In this document: piece by piece, positions 561-32,053 of the stretch
Numbering within the stretch: the first letter of the stretch is position 1
Layout: every line of letters begins with the position of its first letter
DNA from: Candidatus Nanohalarchaeota archaeon
GTDB lineage: Archaea; Nanohalarchaeota; Nanosalinia; Nanosalinales; Nanosalinaceae
Length of the DNA stretch: 64,000 bases
Assembly: GCA_022729235.1 (NCBI GenBank)
Contig: JALDAJ010000001.1
Location: forward strand, 832,001 to 896,000
Direction: 5' to 3'
Position numbers and translations under genes: made by a program
Notes under the pieces: model-generated
Database searches by the model: none
What the model was told of the DNA's origin: nothing
Seen by the model: only the letters and a program-made list of their open reading frames with translations

Positions 561-665
561 AAGTCGATAAACGACTGTGAACGCTTGAGAGGGAAGCCCC
601 GTTTTGAGGTATGAATGTTGACTTCAACATCTCATACTGAGATTGCGGTGAAACCCCGAGAGGTA
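561..665 (+). repeat. att-like site 1
   Basis: Hairpin AGTCG-ataaa-CGACT, GAA ending at 581, 12-nt spacer, core AAGCCCCGTTTTGAG at 594, TTCAA 28 nt after AGCCCC start, CCCCGA at 654. Confidence 0.6.
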
Positions 666-717
666 TACTATGATTTAGTCCGCAAGTTAATTAAGAATAT
701 TTTGCTATCAATAAGTT

Positions 718-1353
718 ATGACAGGTTGGTCTGTGGTTGAAACCGAGTATTCATCTGAGGGAAGACCAGAATACGAACAGATTTTTGTTAATGGAGATTC
801 GGAGGCTGTAGAGAATTTGAATGAGGTATATTTAGAAGAGAGACTAAATGGATTTTCCTTCAAGGATGCAGCAGAGAACCTGTCAAACGCACAGAGAAAT
901 GGTAAAAGTAGAGAAAGCTCAGGAGATATAATTTATCCTGCAATTACAGAGGATGGTTATCGTTGGCGAGAAGAAATAATCAGAAGTGACGGCAGCTGGA
1001 GAAAAAGTATTCCATTCGTAGATTATCAAGAGATAGCTGTCTTATTTCCGCAAAAACGCTCAGGAATTAATCCCGATGATTTGGATGATGGCGAGATAGG
1101 TTTGGGTGCCTTACTCGTTGGGCAAGGATACAGTGCTGAAGAAGCACAAAGAATAGCTAAAGAACGGAAAGAAGCAACTAAAGAGGCTGTAGAAAATAAT
1201 CCGTATCTACGAGATACACACTTTCTAGGAGACCGTTCCGTAGCAGTATACGCAACAGATAATGTAGAAACTAACGGGGCTGAAGAATTTCTCTGGGAAT
1301 TGGCAGATGCTTTAGAGAAAGAAACAGTAGATAAGCAATTTGGAAATAAATGA
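718..1353 (+). CDS. hypothetical protein (sole gene between att-like sites 1 and 2)
   Basis: 211-aa acidic ORF; TATA-like TTAATTAA about 25-30 nt upstream. Confidence 0.75.
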   Translation: MTGWSVVETEYSSEGRPEYEQIFVNGDSEAVENLNEVYLEERLNGFSFKDAAENLSNAQRNGKSRESSGDIIYPAITEDGYRWREEIIRSDGSWRKSIPFVDYQEIAVLFPQKRSGINPDDLDDGEIGLGALLVGQGYSAEEAQRIAKERKEATKEAVENNPYLRDTHFLGDRSVAVYATDNVETNGAEEFLWELADALEKETVDKQFGNK

Positions 1354-1359
1354 TAAAAT

Positions 1360-1463
1360 AAGCCCGCACTGGGCTCTTGAACATAACGCTTATAAGCCCC
1401 GTTTTGAGTTCGGGTAATCGGGTTCAAAAGCCCACAAACTAGTGGACAGTGACCCCGAGGTCA
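1360..1463 (+). repeat. att-like site 2 (both arms present, attP-like)
   Basis: TGGGCTCTTGAA (1370-1381), 12 nt, AAGCCCCGTTTTGAG (1394), then GGGTTCAAAAGCCCACA; the two arms are inverted repeats; CCCCGA at 1453. Confidence 0.75.
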
Positions 1464-1511
1464 GTATTTAGTTTTGTATAGACAAATGTTTTAACTTATT
1501 GTTTGGTTATT

Positions 1512-2777
1512 CTAGATTGGATTAATAGCAGAAACCTCAGGTATGTATATTAAGGCATCAAAGTTTTCTCTAAGTCTCAGTTTGTCGTAGTGATCTTCAA
1601 TATTTTCAAGATGGAAATAAGTTCCTGCAGTATGGAGTCTGTGTTCTTGAGTTATCCATTCCTTCAGTCCTTCATTTGGTATGCCTGTAAAGTCTAGGAA
1701 GAATGGTTCTTGAATCTGATCTAGTTCTTGAGCTAGAGTGTCTTCGTGTAGTTTTTCAAATGATCTTTCTCCCTCCCAGTTAGGCTGTGGTTCTTCCATA
1801 TCGAGGTATTTGAATGATCCTGTTCCGAAATCAAAGCCGATGGCGTAATAGTCTTCCCCGTATTTCTGATCTAGATAGTATCCGAGTGCCTTTGATTCAG
1901 GGTTTTCAGGTTTCCCTCCTTTCTTGATGTGAGCGTTATGTGACCAGACAAATGCCTTTTCTTCATCTTCGAAATCCATCATCCAAGAAATATTTTCCGC
2001 CATACTTTGGTCACGGAAAGTCCAAGAATCTATATCAAGTTCAGCATTCTCATTTACGGCTAAACAGAACTTTCTACACTGCTCAAGTATCACTACTAAC
2101 TGCTTCAATAAGTTGTATTCTTTCTCAGAAATAATTTCCAGATACTCATCCTGCTTCTGCTTGACTTGATTCTCCAAATCTGTGATAAAGTCTTTGAGTT
2201 CCGCTTCTTTTTCTTTATCTATTTCTGCGAACATCATCTTTCCTTGCTCCATAAACTCCAGAGTCTCATTATTTGCTTCAATAAAGTCTCTGTCAACTTT
2301 CTGCATAATTTTCCGCAGCTTCTTGAAAGAAGCAATATCATTCTGCATATCAAAGCCATAGAATCTGACTTTCTCCTCATCTGAAACCTGCTTATTATGT
2401 TCTCGAACCCATTCCACCAAGTTCAAAATTTCTTCTGTTCTGAATATAGGCGAGCTTATCGAACTCAGTGCTTCTTCAGCCGTTCCTTCTCCGTTAACAA
2501 CATAGTTGTTGATTTCAAGCGTTTCTCCAAACGATGCTTCCCAAGCGAATATACGGTAGTCTAACTCTTCAACAAGAAATCGAAAGAATCTGCGTCTAAC
2601 CTGATGAAACTCTTTAGTGGAGTGTGTAGCTTCGCCTATACCAATGATTTTCCTGTTCTCAAGTGTTTCTTTCGGTATTTGGAAGTCTTCAAAAGGATTT
2701 TCTGAAGAAATCTTAAGCGGAGTTGAATAAGATTCTAACTGATTTGATATATTCTCTTGAGAAGACATAGAACACAA
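1512..2777 (-). CDS. erythromycin esterase (EreA/EreB) family protein
   Basis: Motifs IGIGEATH, YGFDMQ, RDQSMAEN, WSHNAH, FDALIYI. Confidence 0.88.
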   Translation of the reverse strand: MCSMSSQENISNQLESYSTPLKISSENPFEDFQIPKETLENRKIIGIGEATHSTKEFHQVRRRFFRFLVEELDYRIFAWEASFGETLEINNYVVNGEGTAEEALSSISSPIFRTEEILNLVEWVREHNKQVSDEEKVRFYGFDMQNDIASFKKLRKIMQKVDRDFIEANNETLEFMEQGKMMFAEIDKEKEAELKDFITDLENQVKQKQDEYLEIISEKEYNLLKQLVVILEQCRKFCLAVNENAELDIDSWTFRDQSMAENISWMMDFEDEEKAFVWSHNAHIKKGGKPENPESKALGYYLDQKYGEDYYAIGFDFGTGSFKYLDMEEPQPNWEGERSFEKLHEDTLAQELDQIQEPFFLDFTGIPNEGLKEWITQEHRLHTAGTYFHLENIEDHYDKLRLRENFDALIYIPEVSAINPI

Positions 2778-2954
2778 ATTTACATTTTCAGGCTTAAATC
2801 TCTGGAATTCTCGAAATACTTAACACTAACGAAAATTACGGCAATATCTTTCAATAACTAATTGTGACAAAAAATATCAACTTCAAATGCTCGTATGAGA
2901 AATTCTAAACCAAAAAACCTGTTATCAGAACCTGATAGATACAAATATAGTGTT

Positions 2955-3020
2955 TAGCCCCTTTTCGAGCTTGGGATGTAGGGTTCGAAAGCCCACAATC
3001 CCTTGGTGAACCCCGAAGGG
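2955..3020 (+). repeat. att-like site 3, left boundary of the integrated element
   Basis: AGCCCC core (2956-2961) then TTCGAAAGCCCACA (2984-2997), the exact reverse complement of 31879-31892; CCCCGA at 3011. Confidence 0.8.
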
Positions 3021-3049
3021 TTGTAATGTCGGTCTACATAGACAGTTTT

Positions 3050-5532: not shown

Positions 5533-5829
5533 ATGGATTATCCTCTTTCGACTCCTTTTAAACTCTACTGCTGGACTCAAAGCAGTGTATACTACATCTT
5601 CTATGAACACTGTGAAGGCTATGAACGTCCCCATAAACTCGGTTTAGACCTTCTGTTGAGAGAAGTCAATCTATGTCCTGTCTGTGAAGGTTATGAATCC
5701 AGATTTCACAGGGGTCAGTGTAGGTTTACTGACTTTATTCTAGAGCTAGACGTTTTAAACGAAAAATATGACAGAAATAACAGGGTTCAAAGGGTTCATA
5801 ACCCCTCCATAGGAGGGGTTGTAGAATAA
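5533..5829 (+). CDS. hypothetical protein with CxxC
   Basis: CPVC motif; stop overlaps MCM start. Confidence 0.5.
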   Translation: MDYPLSTPFKLYCWTQSSVYYIFYEHCEGYERPHKLGLDLLLREVNLCPVCEGYESRFHRGQCRFTDFILELDVLNEKYDRNNRVQRVHNPSIGGVVE

Positions 5830-8090
5830 TGAGTAACAACCAGAAGCTGAATGAGAAAAGAAGAAAGATACTGAACTATCTGAAAAACAGTGGCGAGCAG
5901 ACAACCAAGAAAATCTTCGAAAACTCAGATACCGATTACAGTTCGAAAAACTCTCTCAATAATGCCCTGAATCGTCTCAAGAATCACGGATACCTGAAAA
6001 AGACAAATCCAAAAGGTCAATCAAATTACTGGAAACTTACAGAAAAGGGAAGAGAAGCAATATCTGCTAGAAAGATTGATGTAAAAGATAGTACTTTAGA
6101 ATATGGAGAATTAGTTAGAAGACTGGGAGATTTTGTACAAGAAAAATTACAGGATGATATTGCGCACGCTATCAAGAAAGATAAAAAATCTTGGATAGAG
6201 GTCAGTCTTCCAGACTTGGACAGATTCGATAAAGAAATAGTGAATAAATTGCTGAAAGACCCCGACACGGTACTAGAGGCATTTGAAGAAGTAGTAGAAA
6301 ATAGTTCTCTGGTAGGTAGAGAAGATTCTTTGGAAGTTAGGATTGTAGATTTGCCTGAAGAAGATACAGTAAAACTTTCAGAGATTTACAGCGAAAATAT
6401 AGGTCATTTCGTAGCGGTGGAAGGAATTATTACCAATAATATACTCTCAAAACCTGCAGTTAAATCAGGTATATTCGAGTGTGCAAAGTGTGGAGACCAG
6501 TACAAGAAAGAACAGGACTCCTCTCACCTAAAATCACCATATAAATGTGAATGCGGTTCTAGAAAATTTGAGGTTGTAGAAAAGATTCTGCAGGACACTA
6601 AGACAATTAGTATACAGGAGAGAACCAGCAAGCCGAATCCCAGGAAGCGTGAAGTATACCTGGAAGGCAGTCTAGCAAGAAATAAAGAATTAGAGAACGC
6701 CAGCCTTGGTTCTTTAATTAGAGTAAATGGTATTCTACGAGACCGTCCTCTCAAGAAAAATTCCAAGAAGCTAGAACCCTATATAGAGGCAAACTCTATT
6801 GAGTTCAAGGACAAGAACGAAGTGGAAGAAATAAGTGAGGAAATACAAGAACAAGTACAAGAATTATCTAAAAACCCTGAAATAAAAAGCAAGCTCAAGG
6901 AATCGGTAGCCCAAGGGAAAATCGGAGGTCTTGACCGTGTCAAAGAAGGATACCTACTTTATAGGCTTGGAAAATTTCCAGAAGGAGATATACATCTTCT
7001 GATAGCAGGAGAGCCAGGAGTCGGAAAATCTGAACTAGTTTCAACCAGCGCAGAAACACTTCCTAGAACAGTATATACGGTACTTGAAAATTCTACAAGT
7101 ACAGGTATTACCGCATCGCTCACTGAAGACAAGAAGAAAGGAGGATATGAAGTAAATGCTAACGCTCTTGTAAAAGCAGATGACGGCTTCTTTATAGGTG
7201 ATGAAGCAGGAAAATTTAACGACTCTTACAGTTGCTTCAATACGCCTATGGAGGATGGAGAAGTAAATAGGTCTGCAGGAGATAAGGATATTAGACTGCC
7301 TGCGAAGGCGTCTGTCTGTCTAGTTATGAATCCGTCAGACGTGAATGATAGAAGGTGGGATGGAAAGCCGTCAATAGATGATTTACCTGTAAGCTCTCAA
7401 AGTGATATTTTAAGCAGATTCCATCTCAAAATAGCTATACCCAGTCAGGAAATAGGGGGAAGTGACAGTTTACGGAGAGAAATTAGAAAGGCGGAGAAGG
7501 TTCTTTCATCTGATGAAAACAGAGCAGAGCTTGACCTAGATATTTACCGTGCATATCTTTCAGTAGCTGAAGATATAAATCCAGAAATCTCAGAGGAGGG
7601 TGAAGAACTTCTAAAACGTATCTATGTAGGACTATCATTAAAGAATTACACTTTATCTCCAAGGACTTTGATTGCGTTAAAGAGGATAGCAAAGGCGTAT
7701 TCAAGAATACGTTTGGAGAATAAAGTCTCTGAAGAAAGAGTAATAGAGGCTTACATATTCTGGAAAGAATGTCAAGCTACTCTCTATGAGGAGTTTAGAG
7801 AGGAAAAGCGAAGGGTCACAGAATCTAGTGGATTTCAGAAACAGAAACCGTCTCTATTAGGTGAACTTCTGGAAGTGCTCAGTAGAAATAATGGAAGAAT
7901 GAGGAAGGAGGACTTAAAGGAGGAGCTGGAGCTTGGGGGTTCGGAATCTAAACGGGAAAAAGTTTTTGGAGAGTTAATTGAAGACGCCTTGGAGCAAAAT
8001 GCAGTATCGGAAGAAGGACAGTTTATATATCTGGAAAAAGAGCCTGACTTTTTCGGAGGAGAAGTTGTAGAAATCTTGGAGAATATCTAG
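5829..8090 (+). CDS. mcm: element-encoded MCM replicative helicase with N-terminal wHTH
   Basis: Zn finger CAKC..CECG, Walker A GEPGVGKS, Walker B IGDE, arginine finger SRF; extra N-terminal wHTH. Confidence 0.9.
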   Translation: MSNNQKLNEKRRKILNYLKNSGEQTTKKIFENSDTDYSSKNSLNNALNRLKNHGYLKKTNPKGQSNYWKLTEKGREAISARKIDVKDSTLEYGELVRRLGDFVQEKLQDDIAHAIKKDKKSWIEVSLPDLDRFDKEIVNKLLKDPDTVLEAFEEVVENSSLVGREDSLEVRIVDLPEEDTVKLSEIYSENIGHFVAVEGIITNNILSKPAVKSGIFECAKCGDQYKKEQDSSHLKSPYKCECGSRKFEVVEKILQDTKTISIQERTSKPNPRKREVYLEGSLARNKELENASLGSLIRVNGILRDRPLKKNSKKLEPYIEANSIEFKDKNEVEEISEEIQEQVQELSKNPEIKSKLKESVAQGKIGGLDRVKEGYLLYRLGKFPEGDIHLLIAGEPGVGKSELVSTSAETLPRTVYTVLENSTSTGITASLTEDKKKGGYEVNANALVKADDGFFIGDEAGKFNDSYSCFNTPMEDGEVNRSAGDKDIRLPAKASVCLVMNPSDVNDRRWDGKPSIDDLPVSSQSDILSRFHLKIAIPSQEIGGSDSLRREIRKAEKVLSSDENRAELDLDIYRAYLSVAEDINPEISEEGEELLKRIYVGLSLKNYTLSPRTLIALKRIAKAYSRIRLENKVSEERVIEAYIFWKECQATLYEEFREEKRRVTESSGFQKQKPSLLGELLEVLSRNNGRMRKEDLKEELELGGSESKREKVFGELIEDALEQNAVSEEGQFIYLEKEPDFFGGEVVEILENI

Positions 8091-8566: not shown

Positions 8567-9664
8567 ATGAATGAAGAAGACGTCGATGAAACCATAGATG
8601 AAATCTTTGATGATTATGCCCAGTACCAGGAAGAAAACTACATAGACTTCGACAAGTTCCTCAACCACTATCGAGGCGAACTCTCCAAGAACACCTTGGT
8701 TACCTACGGAAGAGCTTTGAAGTTCATCGACTTTGACCCTCTAGCAGATTCCCCAGAACCTGAGTGCCTGGATGAAGAAGAACAGGAAAAGTTTGACCTG
8801 TCGCAGTTTGAAAGTCTTTGGTCAAAGCGGAAAATGAAGGAAGTATGTGGGAAGGTTGACAAAAATCGTGCTACCAGGAACAGACAGTCGTACCTCTGCT
8901 GGCTCGCTCTCAAGAAATACTACAAAGCGGTAGGTGAAGCAGGGAGAATTGAAGAACTCCCGAATTCCTCTGATTTTGATAATAGAAGCAGTAGCGGAGA
9001 TACAAGCGATACTGATGACTATGTAAAGGTCAGTCTTGAGGAAAGCCAGATAGAACAAATGATGGATGTAGCAGATGAAAAAATGAAGAATGCGCTGATT
9101 AATCTTTACCACGGAGGTATGAGAAGCTATGAGCTACTTCACGCAACATACAAGTGGTACGATTTCTCTTTGGAGGGACGAATAGAGGTAGAAGTCCCAG
9201 CTAAGTATGCGAAAGGTCGCCGAGGGAATCGTTCCTCTGAAAAACTCTATATTAAAGAAGAGTTCCAGGAAGCTCTCCAAAACTACATTTTGGATGTTCA
9301 CAATTTCGATGGAAGTTACAGTGACTTTCTGAAACAGGTAGATGAGGGTAAGGAGCAGTATCTGTTCAACTTCAAACAGGAAACGAATAAGTCATTCAAA
9401 GATTTGAGGGTAGAACGCTGGCGTCTATGGGAGTCTATCCGCTCTGTGGCGAAGGATGCAGGTCTTAATGAGGAAGATGTGAAGAGCTTAAGCAGTCACG
9501 ATTTTCGCACGAACCAAATCCGAAAAGTCTATGACACCGTTAATGACCTTAAGAGGACTGCCCTGGTTGCACGGCACGCTTCATCGAATACTACAGAAAA
9601 ATTTTACCTAAACAAGGATGAGCAAGAAAAACTGGAAACCTACAAAGAAGCATTTGAAGAATGA
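8567..9664 (+). CDS. tyrosine recombinase/integrase
   Basis: GMRSYELL (R), AKG (K), HDFR (HxxR), ARH...TTEKFY (H, Y). Confidence 0.88.
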   Translation: MNEEDVDETIDEIFDDYAQYQEENYIDFDKFLNHYRGELSKNTLVTYGRALKFIDFDPLADSPEPECLDEEEQEKFDLSQFESLWSKRKMKEVCGKVDKNRATRNRQSYLCWLALKKYYKAVGEAGRIEELPNSSDFDNRSSSGDTSDTDDYVKVSLEESQIEQMMDVADEKMKNALINLYHGGMRSYELLHATYKWYDFSLEGRIEVEVPAKYAKGRRGNRSSEKLYIKEEFQEALQNYILDVHNFDGSYSDFLKQVDEGKEQYLFNFKQETNKSFKDLRVERWRLWESIRSVAKDAGLNEEDVKSLSSHDFRTNQIRKVYDTVNDLKRTALVARHASSNTTEKFYLNKDEQEKLETYKEAFEE

Positions 9665-11784: not shown

Positions 11785-13551
11785 ATGAGTAAGGCGCAAA
11801 GTTTCCAAGAAGTTGTAACTAAACAAGTTAAATTCAAGATTCCTGAGTATCAGAGAAATTATTCCTGGACTGAGGAAGAGTTCCAAGACCTGTGGAGAGA
11901 CCTAAACAACGTGATGGATAACAGAGAGGCGGAAGGAAACGGGAGAAACCATTTCTACGGGATGTTTCTCTTTGAAACTGAGGATAATGTTTACAAGATA
12001 ATAGATGGACAGCAGAGAATCACTACGGCAATCATCTTCTTGAATGAAATCAAGAACAAGCTAGCTGAGCAAGGATACGATACCGAGGCTGAAAAGATAA
12101 AACAGGGCTACATAAAAGACATCAACGGCTACAAACTCCAGCTTGGAACAGATGAGGATGACCTTGTATTGAAGGACAATATACTAGGTAAGAAAGTTGT
12201 TGACAGGGATATAGAAGTAATATCTGACTCTCCTTCTCAGAACAAGCTCTTGAGAGCCAAGAAGTTCTTCAGGGAAAAACTGGAGGACAAGGACAAAGAA
12301 TACCTTCTAGACTTGAAGGAAGAGATAACTAAATTAGAAGTCCTTACGTATGAAGTAGAGTCTATTATCCGTGCAGTAAAGATTTTCGAAACCGCCAACG
12401 ACAGAGGACGAGACCTTACAGTCCTGGACAAGACCAAGAGCTTCCTAATGCTACAAATCTATCTCAACAACCACGAAGGAGAAGAAACAGCAATAAAGGA
12501 AGAAATAAATCTTCTACAATCCAGATTCGGAGATATATACGGTAAAATTGAAGAGATTAATCAGGATAGCCACTGGGGAGACCTATCCGAAGACAACATT
12601 CAAAGATTCCACTACATTCTATGGGACACTGAATGGAGCTCAAGCAGAGGAGAAAGATACCACCAGAACCTGCTAGAAAACCTGAAGCAGAAAATCAGAG
12701 AAAGTGAAACGCCTTTAGAGGATATTGAAAATTATTCGAAGCAGTTAAAGACCGCTTTTGTGGCGCAGGAACAACTGACGAAGAAATCTGAGGATAGCAG
12801 AGAAAAGTACCTGATTAAACGGATGGAACTTATGGGAAGTATGGGTAATATCAGACCCTTGCTACTGGCTCTGCGCCTCAAGAAAGATTCTCTAGGAGAA
12901 GACAACTATATCGAAATTCTAGAGCTAGTAGAGACACTAGCGGTCAGGATGTATTCAATTCTTCAAAGACCTGCCTACACTGCTAGATACAAGATATACA
13001 ACCTGGCTAGAGATGTTTACCAGGAAAACGTTTCAGTAGAAGAAATCAAAGAAAAACTGATAGATATAATAGAGGATAAAGCAAGTGATGAAGCAGTAAG
13101 AGAAGCTCTTACAGAGGAATACGATGATTTCTACAAAGACTTTGGGAAACAGGAAATCAGGTTTTTACTCTACTTCTATGAAGAACACAAACAGACAGAG
13201 TCGGACAGACAGAAAATGCCTTTCAACTTGGAAGAATGGGTGAACGGAAAACTAGTCGGCGCAGACAAAGATACAAACATAGAAGTTGAACATATCCATC
13301 CACAGTCTCCGAACGAAGACCTAGACCTAGAGGAAGATAAACACAGGCTCGGAAATCTTTCAATTCTACCTGAAGGAGAGAACAAATCACTTCAGAACGC
13401 AGTTCAAGCCGACAAAGAAGAAGCATACAAACACGTAAACCTAGATATGAATAAGGACATAGTTCCCGATTTAACTGACTGGGGCAAAGATACAATTGAG
13501 AACAGAGAAGAGGAGATAGTTAATCATATCTTGGAACGCTGGAGCTACTAA
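11785..13551 (+). CDS. GmrSD-family (DUF262 + DUF1524/HNH) modification-dependent nuclease
   Basis: IPEYQRNYSW, IIDGQQRITT, FETANDRG; C-terminal EHIHPQ...GNL...N. Confidence 0.9.
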   Translation: MSKAQSFQEVVTKQVKFKIPEYQRNYSWTEEEFQDLWRDLNNVMDNREAEGNGRNHFYGMFLFETEDNVYKIIDGQQRITTAIIFLNEIKNKLAEQGYDTEAEKIKQGYIKDINGYKLQLGTDEDDLVLKDNILGKKVVDRDIEVISDSPSQNKLLRAKKFFREKLEDKDKEYLLDLKEEITKLEVLTYEVESIIRAVKIFETANDRGRDLTVLDKTKSFLMLQIYLNNHEGEETAIKEEINLLQSRFGDIYGKIEEINQDSHWGDLSEDNIQRFHYILWDTEWSSSRGERYHQNLLENLKQKIRESETPLEDIENYSKQLKTAFVAQEQLTKKSEDSREKYLIKRMELMGSMGNIRPLLLALRLKKDSLGEDNYIEILELVETLAVRMYSILQRPAYTARYKIYNLARDVYQENVSVEEIKEKLIDIIEDKASDEAVREALTEEYDDFYKDFGKQEIRFLLYFYEEHKQTESDRQKMPFNLEEWVNGKLVGADKDTNIEVEHIHPQSPNEDLDLEEDKHRLGNLSILPEGENKSLQNAVQADKEEAYKHVNLDMNKDIVPDLTDWGKDTIENREEEIVNHILERWSY

Positions 13552-13599: not shown

Positions 13600-16500
13600 A
13601 TGCCGTATTCGAAGATAACTTCTTCAGATATAGCGAATTGGGACTCTATAGATAAAATCGCTGAATCTCTAGAGAAAAGAGGCTTGGAGCGTGAAAAGAA
13701 TCTTTCAGAACACGACGATGAAATTGTATTGAGAATAAATGACGACGAATTTGTTGCTGTAGTGAAGGCAGAGGAAGGAAAGAAAGCATCGGATTATCGA
13801 ACCAGAATGGACTCAGCAAGGCACACACAAGTTGTTTCTACCACAGATTTCGAAAACTTTACTTTCACAAGCAGAAGACGTTCCTGGGATAAACACGGAC
13901 GAATTCAATACCAGAAATTCTCCTTCAGCAAAGACCAGTTCACAGGACGTGGAGAAAAAAGGTCAGTCCTAGAAAAACTCAACAATATAGAATATGGTGA
14001 CTCTAGAACTATAGACCAGATTTACGAAACACAGAAAGTTGTCAAGAAATTCTACGACGAGTTCGAAGAAATTAAAGCTGAGATGGTCAGAAATGTAGAG
14101 AATATACCTGAAGACAGAGGAGATGCAAAACAAAATTACGCTCAGACTATTTTTGACCGACTGATTTTCCTTTACTTTATCCAAGAGAAAAAGCTTCTAG
14201 ACTACAAGAAGGACTACCTCAGACGACATCACGAAAGAATTACAGAAGAAGGTGAAGATGTATACGAGGAATTTTACGAACCATTATTCTTCAAACTGTT
14301 ATCTGAAGGAGCAAAAGATACTGAGTTCGGAGAATTACCGTACCTGAACGGAGGGCTTTTCAGCAAGACGAGAATCGAAGAAGAATTCCCAGAAGCAAGG
14401 CTTGGAAGCGGTGTGGAAGAAACCAACGAACTATTCGAAGAAATACTTGACTTCCTCGACAGTTGGAACTGGCACGCTGACGAAAGATTAGATATAGTAG
14501 ACCCGAACAGAGTGAGTCCAGAACTTCTCGGGCATATTTTCGAGAAAACAGTCAATCAGAAAGAAATGGGGGCATACTACACGCCAGAAGAAATCACCCA
14601 TTTTATGGCGAGAAACTCCATTCATCCATATATTATAGACAGGCTGAATGAGAAATTCGATACTAACTACGAAGAAATAGACGAAGTATTCAACTTAGAC
14701 GAATATGAGGAAGACGAAGAAACTTACGAACACGATGAAACGAGAATCGGAGAACTGGACGGAATAAACCGAGAAGAAGTAGAACATCTCTACTTCGAAG
14801 TTCTTGAAGACCTGAAGGTTCTCGACCCTGCAGTAGGTTCTGGAGCATTCCTGCTCGCAGCCCAAGAAGTCCTACTAGACGTATACCTTTCCTGCATCGA
14901 ATATTTCCAGAAGCTCGACGAAGAACAGAAATGGGAGATGACACCGCAAATAACGGAGTTTGTCCAGGAGCTAGAGGAAGGAACGCAGAGCGAATCGATG
15001 CACGCCAAGAGAGAAATTATTCTACAGAACCTCTACGGTGTCGATATTGACAGAGGGGCAACAGAAATCTGTAAGCTCCGACTATGGTTATCAATTGTCG
15101 CAGACCTCGAAGAAGGGAAAGACCCGACAGAAGTTGAAACTCTCCCGAACATCGATTTCAATATCAGACAAGGAAACAGTCTTGTCGGTTTTACACAGCC
15201 ACTGGACAAAGCTCTTGACGGCGGCTCTAGTGGTCAGAACACCCAGTCCAGCCTTCATCATTTTAATGAAGACTCCATAAAGGAGAAATACGAAGACATT
15301 ATTGACGCAATTGAGAAGCATAAACGTGCAGATAGCAGTAAGGAGGCAGAAAAATATAGGAAAGATGCAGAAGAACTTCTTAGCAAATATAGAAGTGAAC
15401 CTAACCAGAAGATAAAGAAGCAGTTTGAAAATGCGGGGGCAGAGGTTGATAAAGATACAATAGAAGACTTCTCTCCGTTCCACTGGGTTTTAGAATTCGC
15501 TGAGGTTTATTCTGAGGGCGGATTTGATGTAATTGTCGGAAACCCGCCTTGGGAACAGCTTAAACCGCTGAGAGATGAGTATTTCGAACAGTTCGATGCT
15601 ACATTTAGAGGTCTAAAACCTGATGAAAAGAAGGAGAGGAAGAAAGAGCTATTGGAAGACCCTGAAATCGAAGCGGGATGGGAAGAATACCAGAGAGAAA
15701 TAGATATTCAATCCACCTACTTTAAGAAATCGGGCGTGTATCAATTCCAGCAGCCAGTTGTAGATGGCAGGAAGCACGGGACGGAGAGAGAGCTAGCTGC
15801 TCTATTTTTGGAGAGAGTTTTCTCTTTAGCGGATGAAGAAGGTTATGTATCTCAAATTTTACCTGGAAAAATCTGGAATGGTAGTTCAGCGAAAGATTTG
15901 CGGATGCATTTGCTTAACGGAACGAACATCCGTTCTCTGGTAACGTTTGAAAATAAAGGAATATTCAGCGATATACATCCTCAATATAGATTTGGAGTAG
16001 TTGTGTTTGAGAACCAGGACGAGACTGAAGAATTAGAAGGTATTTTCGGACAAACAGAAACTGATATTCTAGAGAGATTAGATGACGCTAGTGTCCAGAT
16101 TCCAAAAGAAGTTCTGGCTAAATTTTCACCAGAAGCTCGCACTTTCCCAACCATTAAGTCAGAAGAAGATGTCAAAGCTCTCAAGCCTATCTTAGATTAT
16201 CCGCCTATAGGGGATGATATAGAGAATAAGTGGGTCGTGCAAAGCTATAGAGAACTAGACAGAACGAATGACTCAGATAGATTTGTTGAAAAAGAAAAAG
16301 GCGATTATCCAATATACAGCGGAGGCAACATCTTCCAGTTCTGTTACAAAGATGTAGATGGAATTAGTCTGGAAGACACTGAATTCTGGAGTGTTGATGA
16401 AGAAAAAGACCCTGAAGTGAGTGCAAAGAGAAGAATCAGAGAGAAGAACACCTTGGAGCTAAAGAAGCAACTATACCAGGCTTTCGATGGAAGTGGTTCT

Positions 16501-17205
16501 CAAAAGAAATTTGTTAATGAATTATTAGAAAAGAAAAGAGGTAGAAGTCTAGAGCTAGATGATGTGTTGCTCGACTGTAGGACTTTCAGAATTGCTTATA
16601 GGTATGTAGCCAGACAGACGGATGAACGCTCTATGATTGCTTCTGTTTTGCCCAAAGGAGTAGTTACCAGAAATCAAGCACCGACGGTCAGACCTTTCGA
16701 AATAAACCCTTCTAAGGATGACCTTGATTCTGAAGACCTGCACAGTTGCTACGAGGAGATTTTCTCTACCGAAGAACTCTTTTACGCTGTAGGAATTATG
16801 AACAGTCTGCCTTTCGACTTCGTGATGCGAATGAAAGCTGACGCCTCAATTCCTGCTTACAGACTTGAAGAAACTCAAGCACCTCGTCTGACCGAAGGCG
16901 ACAAATGGTTTGAATTTATATGGGAGCGGGCTGCGAAGCTAAACGCTTATGATGAAGAATTCAAGGAAGTCCGAGAGGAACTTGATATTGAGGCTGTAAA
17001 AGAGGGAGAGAAAAGAAAAGAACTTCAGGCAGAGATTGATGCAGCAGCTTTCAAAGCCTATGGTGTGGAAGATAATGAGGCTAGGCACATACTCGATACT
17101 TTCCATAAGGTCAATAATCCTCGAATGATGGATGACGAGTATTTTGATATGGTTTGGGACAAATATCAGGATTTAAAGGAGAAAAAGGAGGTAGTAGCTG
17201 AATAA
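13600..17205 (+). CDS. large N6-adenine DNA methyltransferase (type IIG/Eco57I-like)
   Basis: YLNGGLF, GAYYTP, DPAVGSGAF (motif I), GNPPW (motif IV), C-terminal TRD-like region. Confidence 0.9.
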   Translation: MPYSKITSSDIANWDSIDKIAESLEKRGLEREKNLSEHDDEIVLRINDDEFVAVVKAEEGKKASDYRTRMDSARHTQVVSTTDFENFTFTSRRRSWDKHGRIQYQKFSFSKDQFTGRGEKRSVLEKLNNIEYGDSRTIDQIYETQKVVKKFYDEFEEIKAEMVRNVENIPEDRGDAKQNYAQTIFDRLIFLYFIQEKKLLDYKKDYLRRHHERITEEGEDVYEEFYEPLFFKLLSEGAKDTEFGELPYLNGGLFSKTRIEEEFPEARLGSGVEETNELFEEILDFLDSWNWHADERLDIVDPNRVSPELLGHIFEKTVNQKEMGAYYTPEEITHFMARNSIHPYIIDRLNEKFDTNYEEIDEVFNLDEYEEDEETYEHDETRIGELDGINREEVEHLYFEVLEDLKVLDPAVGSGAFLLAAQEVLLDVYLSCIEYFQKLDEEQKWEMTPQITEFVQELEEGTQSESMHAKREIILQNLYGVDIDRGATEICKLRLWLSIVADLEEGKDPTEVETLPNIDFNIRQGNSLVGFTQPLDKALDGGSSGQNTQSSLHHFNEDSIKEKYEDIIDAIEKHKRADSSKEAEKYRKDAEELLSKYRSEPNQKIKKQFENAGAEVDKDTIEDFSPFHWVLEFAEVYSEGGFDVIVGNPPWEQLKPLRDEYFEQFDATFRGLKPDEKKERKKELLEDPEIEAGWEEYQREIDIQSTYFKKSGVYQFQQPVVDGRKHGTERELAALFLERVFSLADEEGYVSQILPGKIWNGSSAKDLRMHLLNGTNIRSLVTFENKGIFSDIHPQYRFGVVVFENQDETEELEGIFGQTETDILERLDDASVQIPKEVLAKFSPEARTFPTIKSEEDVKALKPILDYPPIGDDIENKWVVQSYRELDRTNDSDRFVEKEKGDYPIYSGGNIFQFCYKDVDGISLEDTEFWSVDEEKDPEVSAKRRIREKNTLELKKQLYQAFDGSGSQKKFVNELLEKKRGRSLELDDVLLDCRTFRIAYRYVARQTDERSMIASVLPKGVVTRNQAPTVRPFEINPSKDDLDSEDLHSCYEEIFSTEELFYAVGIMNSLPFDFVMRMKADASIPAYRLEETQAPRLTEGDKWFEFIWERAAKLNAYDEEFKEVREELDIEAVKEGEKRKELQAEIDAAAFKAYGVEDNEARHILDTFHKVNNPRMMDDEYFDMVWDKYQDLKEKKEVVAE

Positions 17206-29951: not shown

Positions 29952-30404
29952 TTATTTTACATTCAACTTCTCCTCACGTTTCATACTACAAAACTCTTCT
30001 CTAGATATTATTACGTGGTCAAGTAGCTGGACATCGAACTTCTCCAAGCAGGTCTGAACCTGTTCGGTTGCCTTTAAGTCAGACGTGGATGGTTCTGCGC
30101 TGGTCGAGGCGTGGTTGTGGACTAGGATGACTGCTTCTGCATCAGTAAGGACTGCGGTTCTGACAATATCCTTCACGTCCAGGGAAGTCTGCATCGACTG
30201 TCCGAGGGAAATCAGTTTGTCACCGATAACCTTGTTGTCGTTGTTCAGGTAGACGACGTAGAGAGGTTCCTTCATCTTTCGGCGCAGGAACTGATACCTA
30301 TCTTTGATGTGCTGGAGGCTGGCTACCTGGTCTCTGCCCTCTTCGACTTGCTGGAGACTGCTTCCGCTGTGATTGTTCCGAAACTGTATTCCATAGACTA
30401 ACAC
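29952..30404 (-). CDS. RadC-like JAB domain protein
   Basis: E..YVVYLN, VHNH...PS..D, LLDHVII. Confidence 0.85.
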   Translation of the reverse strand: MLVYGIQFRNNHSGSSLQQVEEGRDQVASLQHIKDRYQFLRRKMKEPLYVVYLNNDNKVIGDKLISLGQSMQTSLDVKDIVRTAVLTDAEAVILVHNHASTSAEPSTSDLKATEQVQTCLEKFDVQLLDHVIISREEFCSMKREEKLNVK

Positions 30405-30441
30405 TTCTTGGAAGAAGTATGGGGTGAGGGAGAGGCAGGAC

Positions 30442-31827
30442 CTAGATTTTGCCTGCGCCTCCCTGTAGACCTTTCTGATTTTTCTCGATGACTACTACTT
30501 CTTGTTCGGTCTTGTTTCTTGCTATTTTGTCGGTGAGTGCGTGTCCGCAGGTGCAGAGGTCTCTGGTCGGTGGGTGGATTGTCTCGCAGTTCCCGCATTT
30601 CTTCCTGTCAAGCGCTTTCAGGTCTCTGTCGTCTTCTGGTTCGATTCCTTGTGCGAGAAGCCTGTCTCTCCCTTCTATCTTGTCAGGTTCTAATGTGTAA
30701 TCTCTGACTTGTTGAAGGTCGCTCCACCCTCCTCTGTCAGCTACTTCGCCTATATCCCAGTCTGCAATTTTGCGGTAATACGTTACCATCGAAAAACGGT
30801 ATGCGTGAGGGTTATGGCGTTTATCTAGGTTGATATTGTCTGCTAGTCTTTCCAGGGCTTTGGATATGCTTCTTCTGGACATTTGGTCTCCTCTATCCTT
30901 TGCTTTCTCTCCGTCTGGCGTGTATGAGTCTTGGAGGACGCAGAAGATGTAGGCTTCTGGGTTATCGCTTCGAGGGTGGTATTCCAGCCATTCACGGAGA
31001 AGATGTGTGCAACGTGTTAAATGGTTCTCTCTTTTTGGGCGCAGACTCTTGTTTTTCTGACTGTTCAGAGTTAGTGTGGTGTGTGTATCGTGTCTGGTTA
31101 CGTCCTTTATCTGGAGTGTTCTGATTTCCTCCAAACGAGCCCCTGTACAGTAGAATAGGAGTGGTAGGAGGGCATCTCTCCTGTTTTTTGCGGATTTCGC
31201 CATTGCCATTACTTCGTCTGGGAAGATGAAGTCGTAAATCCTCTTCAGTTCTTTCTTCCCTGGGTGGGAGGTGTTCGTGACCTCTGAGTCGAGGATGTTC
31301 CAGATACGGGGTGGTCTGTCTCTTGGAGGGAACATCGTCTTGTAGAACTTCTGGAGGCAGACACGTCTATCCCGCTTTGTGGTTGCGGAGACATCTTGCT
31401 GGTCTATTGCGTCAGCAAGTTTTCCTATGTCTTCCAGTGTTGCTTCTAAAAGCTTGAAATCGGTGTGTGGTAGAATTTGTCCGAACTGTGACAGGTATTT
31501 CTCAAGCCTGTAGTCGCTGATTTGGTCGTCTCGGACAGAGTTGAGTTCGTGTATGAACTCTTCTACTGCTTCTCCGTTTTCAGGGGAGACGTAGTCTTTG
31601 TCTAGAAGGTTTTGAAGTCGTCTTTGGATGTGTGGTGACAGAGTTGAATCTGTCGTTTTGTCTGTGTTGTCGTCTTCGTTGTGTTCTGGTTTCATTTCAA
31701 AGGGTTCACCTGATGTTTGAGTGAACCCTTCGGGTCGGTCGGGGTTTCCCCGCCCGTTCACCTGTTCGAGGAGTTGCCTCCTCTTATCTTTGTATTCCCG
31801 TTCCGTTATGGCTTGGGAATCCTTCAC
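30442..31827 (-). CDS. tRNA-targeting tyrosine integrase with C-terminal zinc ribbon
   Basis: TGARLEEI, SQK, PHAYR, GW...VRDY; CGNC...CTCG; starts ~80 nt from the tRNA 3' end. Confidence 0.92.
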   Translation of the reverse strand: MKDSQAITEREYKDKRRQLLEQVNGRGNPDRPEGFTQTSGEPFEMKPEHNEDDNTDKTTDSTLSPHIQRRLQNLLDKDYVSPENGEAVEEFIHELNSVRDDQISDYRLEKYLSQFGQILPHTDFKLLEATLEDIGKLADAIDQQDVSATTKRDRRVCLQKFYKTMFPPRDRPPRIWNILDSEVTNTSHPGKKELKRIYDFIFPDEVMAMAKSAKNRRDALLPLLFYCTGARLEEIRTLQIKDVTRHDTHTTLTLNSQKNKSLRPKRENHLTRCTHLLREWLEYHPRSDNPEAYIFCVLQDSYTPDGEKAKDRGDQMSRRSISKALERLADNINLDKRHNPHAYRFSMVTYYRKIADWDIGEVADRGGWSDLQQVRDYTLEPDKIEGRDRLLAQGIEPEDDRDLKALDRKKCGNCETIHPPTRDLCTCGHALTDKIARNKTEQEVVVIEKNQKGLQGGAGKI

Positions 31828-31865
31828 GTCGCCGAAAGGCTTGTAGTGGGAAAACCGTTTCTATT

Positions 31866-31911
31866 CACCCACAAAGAGTGTGGGCTTTCGAAACGATTTT
31901 CACGAAGCCCC
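31866..31911 (+). repeat. tRNA-proximal att site, right boundary of the element
   Basis: Hairpin CCCACA-aagag-TGTGGG, TGTGGGCTTTCGAA (31879-31892), 12 nt, AAGCCCC (31905-31911) overlapping the tRNA 3' end. Confidence 0.8.
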
Positions 31912-32053
31912 GCCCGAGATTTGAACCCGGGACCTCGTCCTGTTTGTTGACTGATTCCGCCGTAGGCGGCGACCACCGAAGTGTGGTCCTTGCGTGTGGA
32001 CCGAGCGTAACCAGTCCTACCAAGGACGTGCTCTACCGCTGAGCCAGCGGGGC
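31906..32053 (-). tRNA. tRNA-Thr(GGT) with 76-nt intron at 37/38 (31942-32017)
   Basis: GCCCCGC/GCGGGGC acceptor stem, CGTCC-TTGGTA^A-GGACG anticodon arm, GGTTCAAAT T-loop; relaxed BHB. Confidence 0.93.

Follow-up and report, generated by a model that had tools for sequence, protein, structure and literature searches.

Small integrase-less gene modules stacked beside an integrase-bearing element at a nanohaloarchaeal tRNA-Thr gene: a probable array of tyrosine-integrase attachment sites

The window analysed here is a stretch of 64,000 bp (bases 832001-896000) of the genome of a Candidatus Nanohalarchaeota archaeon, which consists of a single contig of 1,027,595 bp with a GC content of 0.485; positions refer to the window unless another frame is given. 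In this window, short repeated sites bracket small gene units that lie in tandem with an integrase-bearing element of 29 kb at the 3' end of a tRNA-Thr gene. In the accretion model of cis-mobilizable elements (CIMEs; ICESt1-type, Streptococcus thermophilus), integrase-less elements bounded by attachment (att) sites are stacked with an integrase-bearing one and moved together, according to the passages available from PMC5704250. By analogy, CIME/tandem accretion appears to be the closest mechanism for the present locus, which is a variant of tandem accretion and not an integron. In both systems, tandem att-bounded elements devoid of integrase and transfer genes lie beside an integrase-bearing element at a tRNA 3' end, and the internal att sites are chimeric; alternative excision can move neighbours jointly in CIMEs and is predicted to do so here. 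The differences concern the host, which is here a DPANN archaeon, the autonomous partner, which is an MCM plasmid-like element and not a conjugative one, and the passengers: those of CIMEs are decayed islands of a few kb to tens of kb, whereas those described here are mostly one- or two-gene units of 0.7-2.4 kb (one of 3.9 kb) with structured arms, which recur across genera. The primary papers on ICESt1-type tandem accretion are said to be those of Pavlovic in 2004 and Bellanger in 2011, and sublocation classes of tRNA integration sites were reportedly described by Williams in 2002.

In archaea, short att identities are on record (8 bp in Thaumarchaeota, PMC8371274; 13 bp in SNJ2, PMC6563490), and the available passages of the same two papers also report the re-use of att sites giving rise to arrays and integrated elements without an integrase. 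The smallest tRNA-integrated element mentioned in those of PMC6563490 has 2.6 kb and encodes its own integrase. The present locus resembles such archaeal tRNA-integrase arrays (pNOB8, SNJ2, classical non-suicidal) in its target, a tRNA 3' end, in the integrity of the integrase gene after integration, in the length of the att identity (8-13 bp there vs 6-12 bp here) and in the re-use of one site by tandem elements. These passages of PMC8371274 and PMC6563490 contain no description of integrase-less one-gene units that have conserved arms and recur in many genomes, and such arrays are not mentioned in the main-text passages, supplements aside, of the literature on the viruses and genomes of nanohaloarchaea. 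The genomes of DPANN archaea are tiny and these organisms depend on hosts; little is known about the way in which they gain accessory genes.

We consider it probable that site-specific recombination at the tRNA-Thr 3' end has joined the modules of this region into a tandem array, the repeated sites being att sites of a tyrosine integrase that targets this gene and the small units being non-autonomous modules beside an autonomous 29-kb element. The sites, their specificity and anatomy, their family-wide distribution, the exchange of cargo and the breakpoints at the core were observed directly. The initial annotation had proposed att-like junctions that are linked with the integrase and the 3' end of tRNA-Thr and that bracket one-gene units without integrase, and this proposal is supported.

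A low-GC stretch (~0.40) spans from ~1.5 kb left of the window to ~30,400, and the island ends at tRNA-Thr(GGT) on the minus strand. This tRNA gene was detected using ARAGORN with introns allowed, and was missed by default ARAGORN and by the Rfam gathering threshold. The sites share the core AGCCCC (595-600, 1395-1400, 2956-2961 and 31906-31911), which corresponds to the discriminator base and five acceptor-stem bases of tRNA-Thr. To the right of the core, the left end of each module consists of a P' arm of ~75 nucleotides (nt), made up of (N)TTTYGAG, a hairpin whose 3' half starts with TTCAA/TTCCAA at +28, and a second small palindrome (GACC..GGTC or AACCC..GGGTT). To the left of the next core, the right end of the module forms the P arm, one type of which bears an inverted copy of the 12-nt motif TGGGCTYTYGAA at -25. 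In our own reading, the start of the P' arm resembles the antisense of the tRNA end (AGCCCC-G(CCC/TTTT)-GAG-(A/TC)-TTGAA). Two profile models of the ~75-nt element, R1 and R2, were used for scans, and their E values are given with the features of the array, in which open reading frames (ORFs) are given with their length in amino acids (aa):

-737 to 594 (right part 1-594), plus strand: unit 0, 1332 bp, from site 0 to site 1
595-672, plus strand: site 1, core 595-600 and class-B P' arm (R1 E=2.7e-12, R2 E=7.4e-14)
595-1394, plus strand: unit 1, 800 bp, GC 0.40, with a single ORF
718-1353, plus strand: ORF of unit 1, 211 aa, no Pfam family above threshold
1361-1394, plus strand: P arm of unit 1, integrase-type 'A', with the hairpin AGCCC-GCAC-TGGGCT, TGGGCTCTTGAA (1370-1381), 12 nt and A
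1395-1470, plus strand: site 2, core 1395-1400 and class-A P' arm, with TTCAAAAGCCCA at 1423-1434 (R1 E=5e-22)
1395-2955, plus strand: unit 2, 1561 bp, GC 0.37, with a single esterase gene
1512-2777, minus strand: erythromycin-esterase-family gene, 421 aa (PF05139, 1.7e-61)
2956-3025, plus strand: site 3, core 2956-2961 and P' arm, with TTCGAAAGCCCACA at 2984-2997 and the hairpin AACCC-CGAA-GGGTT (R1 E=1.8e-14)
2956-31905, plus strand: autonomous integrative element, 28,950 bp, GC 0.41 vs 0.485 for the genome
30442-31827, minus strand: tyrosine integrase, 461 aa, start 79 bp from the core (PF00589, 1.6e-17)
31868-31905, plus strand: P arm of the 29-kb element, with the hairpin CCCACA-aagag-TGTGGG, TGTGGGCTTTCGAA (31879-31892), 12 nt and A
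31906-32053, minus strand: tRNA-Thr(GGT) with a 76-nt intron; the shared core is formed by its last 6 nt (31906-31911 on the plus strand)

In relatives, the tRNA-Thr gene carries introns of 14-103 nt at the same position.

The 29-kb element is bordered by core and P' arm on the left (2956) and by P arm, core and tRNA on the right (31906). Site 3 is thus its left end, and TTCGAAAGCCCACA forms a 14/14 inverted repeat with 31879-31892. The integrase-type P arm (hairpin, TGGGCTYTYGAA, 12 nt, A) is found at the tRNA core and at site 2. Because such an arm sits to the left of the core of site 2 and a P' arm to its right, site 2 is a full P-core-P' junction, that is, the joint expected between two elements integrated in tandem. 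At site 1 the hairpin is formed by GTATGAATGTTGA/TCAACATCTCATAC and followed by GGTGAAACCCCGAGAGG; this arm is 84-86% identical to arms in two related genomes, G017 and G056. The right end of unit 2 contains CTTCAAATGCTCGTATGAG (2881-2899) and the hairpin CTGTTATCAGAACCTGATAG (2919-2938). Units 595-1394 and 1395-2955 hold one ORF each and no PF00589 domain, so that they are att-flanked without integration or transfer genes, and in this genome they sit in tandem with the integrase-bearing element at the same tRNA target.

A further site, site 0, was found beyond the window at genome position 831263 (window -737). Its sequence, AAGCCCCGCCCG, matches the tRNA end over 12 nt and is followed by TTCAAAGCCC at +27. 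The 12-mer has three copies in the genome (0.12 expected), the third one inside another tRNA. Because site 0 repeats the tRNA end, the whole 32.6-kb island is bounded by a 12-nt direct repeat of AAGCCCCGCCCG (window -738 and 31905), and the three internal sites split it into units of 1332, 800, 1561 and 28,950 bp. At the internal junctions the shared identity is AGCCCC, 6-8 nt. The cargo of unit 0 is a 155-aa acidic ORF that ends at 338, with its 3' part in the window; a homologue with 46% identity (155/146 aa) is the cargo of a one-gene unit in genome G046, where it lies tRNA-proximal beside tRNA-Thr(TGT). The guess that the ORF at 1-338 belonged to a further unit was thus right, unit 0 being bounded by site 0. 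Directly to the left of site 0, a 329-aa ORF without Pfam family (L004 8180-9169, genome 830180-831169) separates this site from a host-like membrane-protein gene; to the left of the ORF no site was detected.

The architecture of the sites described in the initial annotation was found in the sequence in all its parts. GAA, exactly 12 nt and AAGCCCC occur at sites 1 and 2 and at the tRNA, but not at site 3; at sites 1-3, TTC(A/G)A begins 28 nt past the A of AGCCCC and GTGA..CCCCGA comes next; the inverted arms of the 800-bp unit match at 9/12 positions. The bare hexamer AGCCCC is uninformative, with 12 matches in the window vs 17.6 expected. The longer pattern AGCCCCKTTTYGAG has three forward matches in the whole genome, which are sites 1-3, and the backwards control gave 1+2. 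The motif TGGGCTYTYGAA has exactly four genome copies, at 1370 and 31881 on the plus strand and at 1423 and 2984 on the minus strand (~0.5 expected under a uniform model), and its spacing is fixed in 4/4 cases: -25 (inverted) from cores 1395 and 31906, +28 (direct) from cores 1395 and 2956. With both profile models the genome matches are 595, 1395 and 2956 only, even at E<=1, and the three arm copies share one orientation upstream of tRNA-Thr. On the basis of these genome counts and profile scans, a chance origin was rejected for the long motifs and accepted for the bare hexamer. The motif is therefore not scattered over the genome independently of this tRNA gene, an outcome that the initial annotation had named as fatal to its proposal: the arm occurs only three times and TGGGCTYTYGAA only four times, all at this locus.

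When 28 arms were folded as single-stranded DNA, the mean z was -1.5, with z < -2 in 9/28; a hairpin of at least 5 bp lies directly past TTTYGAG in 26/28 (no shuffle control). Stem sequences vary by class and their pairing is kept (GTATGAATGTTGA/TCAACATCTCATAC, GGCGGTTGA/TCAACCGCC, TCTTGAAG/CTTCAAGA, TGTGGGC/GCCCACA); loops measure 2 to 14 nt while the 3' half stays at +28. This structure fits a dyad protein site or a folded hairpin alike. A consensus RNA fold of ten arms gave only a weak TTTTGAG/TTCAAAA helix (-4.6 kcal/mol, 2/11 pairs compensated), and no single common structure can be scored across the arms because the classes use different registers. A search of the arms against Rfam gave no match at the gathering threshold and only four hits at E<=10; with E values of 2-10 these were at chance level and far below gathering scores, and a known RNA family was rejected.

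The occurrence of the sites was then determined in 70 genomes of the order (the same 70 represent the phylum), which comprise one family, f1, and four other families. The strict arm pattern is present in 3/70 genomes; among ~185,000 species genomes it was found in only two records, both Nanohaloarchaea metagenome-assembled genomes, and it was also found in two further metagenome contigs. The models R1 and R2 together detected sites in 18/70 genomes, all of family f1 (the present genome and 17/49 others), and in 0/20 genomes of the four other families. Within f1, no match was obtained in six complete genomes, nor in the one genome of the same genus. Where contigs suffice, the sites lie upstream of tRNA-Thr (GGT or TGT) in one orientation. 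Anchoring on tRNA-Thr was seen in the present genome, G016 (three sites), G064 (two), the metagenome locus L029, G013, G017, G046, G051 and contig C14 of G056. For the sites of G058, G068 and G056:C1 no tRNA was present within the fetched flanks, and several other sites lie at contig ends. On G056:C5, four cores are found in 4.3 kb, the last one being a 12-nt tRNA fragment beside a split integrase.

Thirteen units bounded on both sides were delimited (686-3858 bp). Twelve of them measure 686-2350 bp and have one or two long ORFs, the largest of the twelve (2350 bp) containing up to four ORFs of at least 80 aa. The sizes of the units are:

own genome: 1332, 800 and 1561 bp
G016: 2152, 1032 and 1406 bp
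G064: 845 and 1446 bp
L029: 686 bp
G056:C5: 2350, 913 and 1072 bp
G055: 1185 bp
G013: 3858 bp, with three ORFs
G017, G046 and G051: tRNA-adjacent units of about 0.8-1.2 kb each

No PF00589 domain was found in the bounded units (own, G016, G064, G055, G017, G056 and L029 included). None of the 13 contains an integrase, MCM or other backbone fragment, and all 13 have intact cargo ORFs. The cargo that could be assigned to Pfam consists of an erythromycin-esterase-family enzyme, DUF2268, a nucleotide pyrophosphatase/phosphodiesterase, an APH/fructosamine-kinase-family protein and a lipoate-protein ligase; the remainder are small proteins without family. In L023 (G064:C44, 9886-11063), neighbouring units carry paralogous genes of 113 aa (partial, contig end) and 229 aa that are 68% identical, which is either a duplicated unit or the repeated capture of related units.

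The cargo is exchanged between genomes. The esterase of unit 2 is 88% identical (aa) to that of G016, and the flanking EamA gene only 47%; at the DNA level, unit 2 is 89.6% identical to its counterpart over 1424 bp starting from the A of AGCCCC, and the left flanks are unrelated. An APH-family gene is shared by G055 and G017 (83% identity) and a 205/220-aa gene by G056 and G013 (79%). The order of the units and their neighbours vary between genomes. In line with the initial annotation, which had counted syntenic and invariant intervening genes as a refutation, related genomes have units with other cargo, order and hosts, and the intervening genes are not syntenic in them. Like arms also enclose different contents: the present unit 1 and the G017 unit have class-B P' arms (84.6%) and TGGGCTCTTGAA P arms in common with unrelated cargo, and the P' arm of the APH unit of G055, a unit with a 12/12 inverted P-arm motif, TGGGCTTTCGAA, shows 90% identity to the P' arm of the present 29-kb element.

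Breakpoints of homology were found at the core. The duplicated P arms of G016 and G064 stop at the core, and the homology between G055 and G017 stops 5 nt into it. In three older, independent metagenome runs (X2-X4), coverage is confined to the esterase unit (L004 11394-12849); their contigs show at least four different left contexts, which break at L004 11393-11395, and one contig runs from the esterase unit via 2208 other bases into another P' arm. Gaps in the X2-X4 cover were not counted as evidence, and in runs X5 and X6 next to none of the search words were present. All junction types have only AGCCCC in common and vary in the bases that flank it. A 6-bp overlap region fits these data, because the breakpoints sit at the core and only AGCCCC is common to the junctions.

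One pair of units was compared in its arms. L073 (G055:C27) and L075 (G017:C9) have the same APH cargo and P arm, their P' hairpins 1 belong to different classes, and homology resumes ~52 nt past the core. This pattern suggests either that exchange took place at a second point or that gene conversion occurred within the arm.

The integrase is the candidate recombinase. Its ORF (30442-31827) remains uninterrupted after integration, next to one of the att sites. The protein can be aligned to the Cre catalytic domain, with GAR, HAYR, GGW and RDY as the tyrosine-recombinase signature, and it is one of only two PF00589 hits in the genome. Among the 70 genomes, the two closest homologues are found on G056:C14 (48% identity) and G069:C15 (46%, with two stops). 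They adjoin the same hairpin, followed by TGTGGGCTGTTGAA, 13 nt, AGCCCC and tRNA-Thr, so that the P arm of the 29-kb element is conserved beside them. The P-arm architecture of unit 1 recurs beside the tRNA at the integrase-bearing elements of the present genome, G056 and G069, and also at integrase-less units of G017, G055 and G056:C5. At the far end of the G056:C14 element, ~21.9 kb away, lies a P' arm; this element has a Zn-ribbon protein (53%) and MCM (34%) in common with the 29-kb element. A degraded relative was seen in L029 (1739-2890, minus strand), where the first ~170 residues of a 383-aa ORF are 33% identical to the N-terminal part of the integrase and the remainder resembles a response-regulator/PAS protein. 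This ORF, which starts 80 bp from a core, is apparently what is left of a decayed integrase after its fusion to another gene.

From the sequence we infer both catalysis by the 461-aa integrase and the route of module movement. The integrase of the autonomous element would recombine any P-core-P' or core-P' site with the tRNA site, so that modules would stack by accretion. The same enzyme could excise the autonomous element alone or with neighbouring modules. Modules would then travel between hosts as passengers and stay in place after the departure of the integrase element. As related archaea hold similar stacks with different genes, the site seems to be a common docking place where genes are swapped. 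If so, a defined docking site would allow one-gene modules to be stacked and exchanged between genera of one nanohaloarchaeal family, with a cargo of erythromycin-esterase-family enzyme, APH-family kinase, lipoate ligase, phosphodiesterase and small acidic proteins. The predicted recombination system is small, with a 6-bp core, ~75-nt arms and a 461-aa integrase, and the arm model provides a sequence signature for mapping, in brine metagenomes, the flexible gene pool of these archaea.

Several results weigh against tandem accretion by this integrase. No PF00589 domain was found anywhere in G016 (96% complete) or G064 (77%), despite their arrays, which would at present be without a resident catalyst. 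Homologues of the integrase (E<=1e-5) occur in 9/18 arm-bearing genomes vs 23/52 without arms, which is no clear enrichment. The P arms are heterogeneous: among 17 mapped cores, six have the inverted motif at -25/-26, four have a direct copy at -72/-73, and 7/17 have neither motif within two mismatches. Site 0 is not recognized by R1 or R2. The P' arms of the APH units of G055 and G017 diverge over their first ~50 nt, a difference that a simple single-core crossover model does not predict. The integrase module (30000-31906) has a host-like GC content of 0.486, vs 0.409 for the other 27 kb of the element; this contrast hints at a composite element or at a long residence of the integrase in the host. 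Three scans of viral contigs for an attP gave no true hits. Finally, circle, excision or deletion junctions were absent from the assembled contigs of the probable source run X1, in which one contig spans the array.

In the scans of viral contigs, neither the strict arm pattern nor the class-B arm word gave a hit, and ten matches to P arm plus core were judged to be due to chance, as their context was unrelated and no arm or tRNA lay past the core.

A more specific reading, which overlaps with accretion at the tRNA-Thr end, is an integron-like capture in trans: a unit would excise as a non-replicating circle whose P, core and P' form an attP, and the integrase of a co-resident element would re-insert it singly at a core. 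We regard this as possible but less likely than not. The units carry both ends of an attP; unrelated cargo is found between the same pair of arms and the same cargo at different positions in the array; hairpin stems vary by class yet pair, with loops of 2 to 14 nt and the 3' half at +28. Four integrase-less units (the present unit 1 and those of G055, G017 and G056:C5) have a clean integrase-type P arm without integrase fragment, while the sole clear decay product, L029, retains an N-terminal integrase fragment 80 bp from the core. The same comparative data are, however, accounted for by cis-mobilization with the autonomous element, two array-bearing genomes have no PF00589 hit, and no circle junction was present among the contigs examined. 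The search for unit circles that the initial annotation had suggested thus gave none in the X1 contigs, but assembled contigs drop rare variants, and for this reason the result is not evidence against movement in trans.

Integrons proper carry attC sites with a GTTRRRY core and an R''/L''/L'/R' structure, and an IntI-type integrase is encoded beside attI, where the cassettes, mostly promoterless and all in much the same orientation, are inserted. They have also been reported in Archaea (10.1101/2022.02.06.479319, in the part available). The present locus is like them in its array of small, mostly single-gene units, in a repeated site with imperfect dyad symmetry, in the use of a tyrosine recombinase and in accessory enzymes shared between lineages. 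It differs in the site (AGCCCC, TTTYGAG and a hairpin at +28, without attC structure) and in the anchoring of the array on a tRNA gene. The integrase lies at the tRNA-proximal end of the mobile 29-kb element with the small units on its far side, there is no attI or fixed attI-like entry point beside it, and it is absent from some array genomes; genes are found on both strands relative to the sites. Of the integron-like cassettes mobilised in trans that the initial annotation had inferred, the att-like sites and integrase-less units have stood, and the label 'integron-like' does not go beyond analogy, given the lack of IntI/attC and the two gene orientations. An IntI/attC-independent integron-like solution of this type was not found described in the literature searched, supplements aside; if single units do move in trans, such a solution would have arisen independently of IntI/attC. 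It would be speculative and rather doubtful to go further and propose that Nanohaloarchaea own a second, non-IntI gene-cassette platform, in which single-gene cassettes with a hairpin site mimicking the tRNA-Thr 3' end would be captured, stacked and reshuffled in trans at tRNA-Thr genes by a plasmid-borne tyrosine integrase that recognizes the hairpin rather than the sequence. The idea of hairpin recognition comes from the stems, which differ and yet stay paired, from the range of loop lengths and from the fixed position of the 3' half.

It is unlikely that the small units are immobile deletion remnants, as they would be if successive integrations at tRNA-Thr had pushed older elements outward and internal deletions had left only their ends. 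Such a history of tandem att re-use and later decay is usual for arrays of this kind in the passages available from PMC5704250, PMC6563490 and PMC8371274, and in the present genome the small units are distal to the tRNA, like older insertions. The decayed integrase of L029 adjoins a core, the split integrase of G056:C5 lies beside the 12-nt tRNA fragment, and several left arms are unrecognizable. However, 12/13 bounded units measure 0.7-2.4 kb, and the 13/13 with intact cargo include none with a fragment of integrase, MCM or backbone. Only rarely would a random deletion stop in the ~35 bp that separate the P arm from the start of the integrase, but this is the case in four units; copies of one unit whose two ends are both conserved occur in different genera and contexts; and in L029, G017, G046 and G051 a small unit is tRNA-proximal, and so the most recent. 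Non-autonomous modules were ranked above random remnants because the ends are common to autonomous and non-autonomous forms and because the L029 decay product keeps an integrase fragment. The alternative of deletion remnants of larger islands, already raised in the initial annotation, is weakened by the intact cargo and the lack of backbone fragments, while the decay seen in L029 points the other way.

That the arms are no recombination sites at all but a structured RNA, a terminator or a regulatory repeat of intergenic regions is highly improbable: they do fold into hairpins (mean z -1.5 for 28 arms, at least 5 bp in 26/28), have a T-run after the core and lie directly past the stop codons of the esterase gene and of a 333-aa gene, but they belong to no Rfam family (four chance-level hits, E 2-10), their orientation to the neighbouring gene is not constant, and this explanation leaves unaccounted for the identity to the tRNA end, the nine genomes or contigs in which the arms adjoin tRNA-Thr, the presence of the same arms at integrase elements and the breaks of homology at the core.

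An empty site was looked for using the left-flank protein (281 aa), which has no orthologue in five genomes. In G007 the tRNA-Thr/EamA synteny is kept; the region downstream has a low GC content and an arm-like word at ~-31, with no model hit. The metagenome locus L032 (4663-5750) contains a fragment of a P-type ATPase gene whose stop codon coincides exactly with the start of a P' arm site (TAA|GCCCC), and a homologous ATPase sits to the left of the G017 array. This P-type ATPase may be the native left border of the tRNA-Thr locus.

The 29-kb element carries these other genes:

5829-8090: MCM helicase
8567-9664: second tyrosine recombinase
11785-13551: GmrSD, type IV restriction
13600-17205: Eco57I/MmeI-like methyltransferase, 1201 aa
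17205-20942: PLD and SNF2/ResIII helicase, 1245 aa
25376-26989: HerA-like ATPase

Judging by this gene content, the element is a putative plasmid-like integrative element and also a predicted defence island (window 5829-27754).

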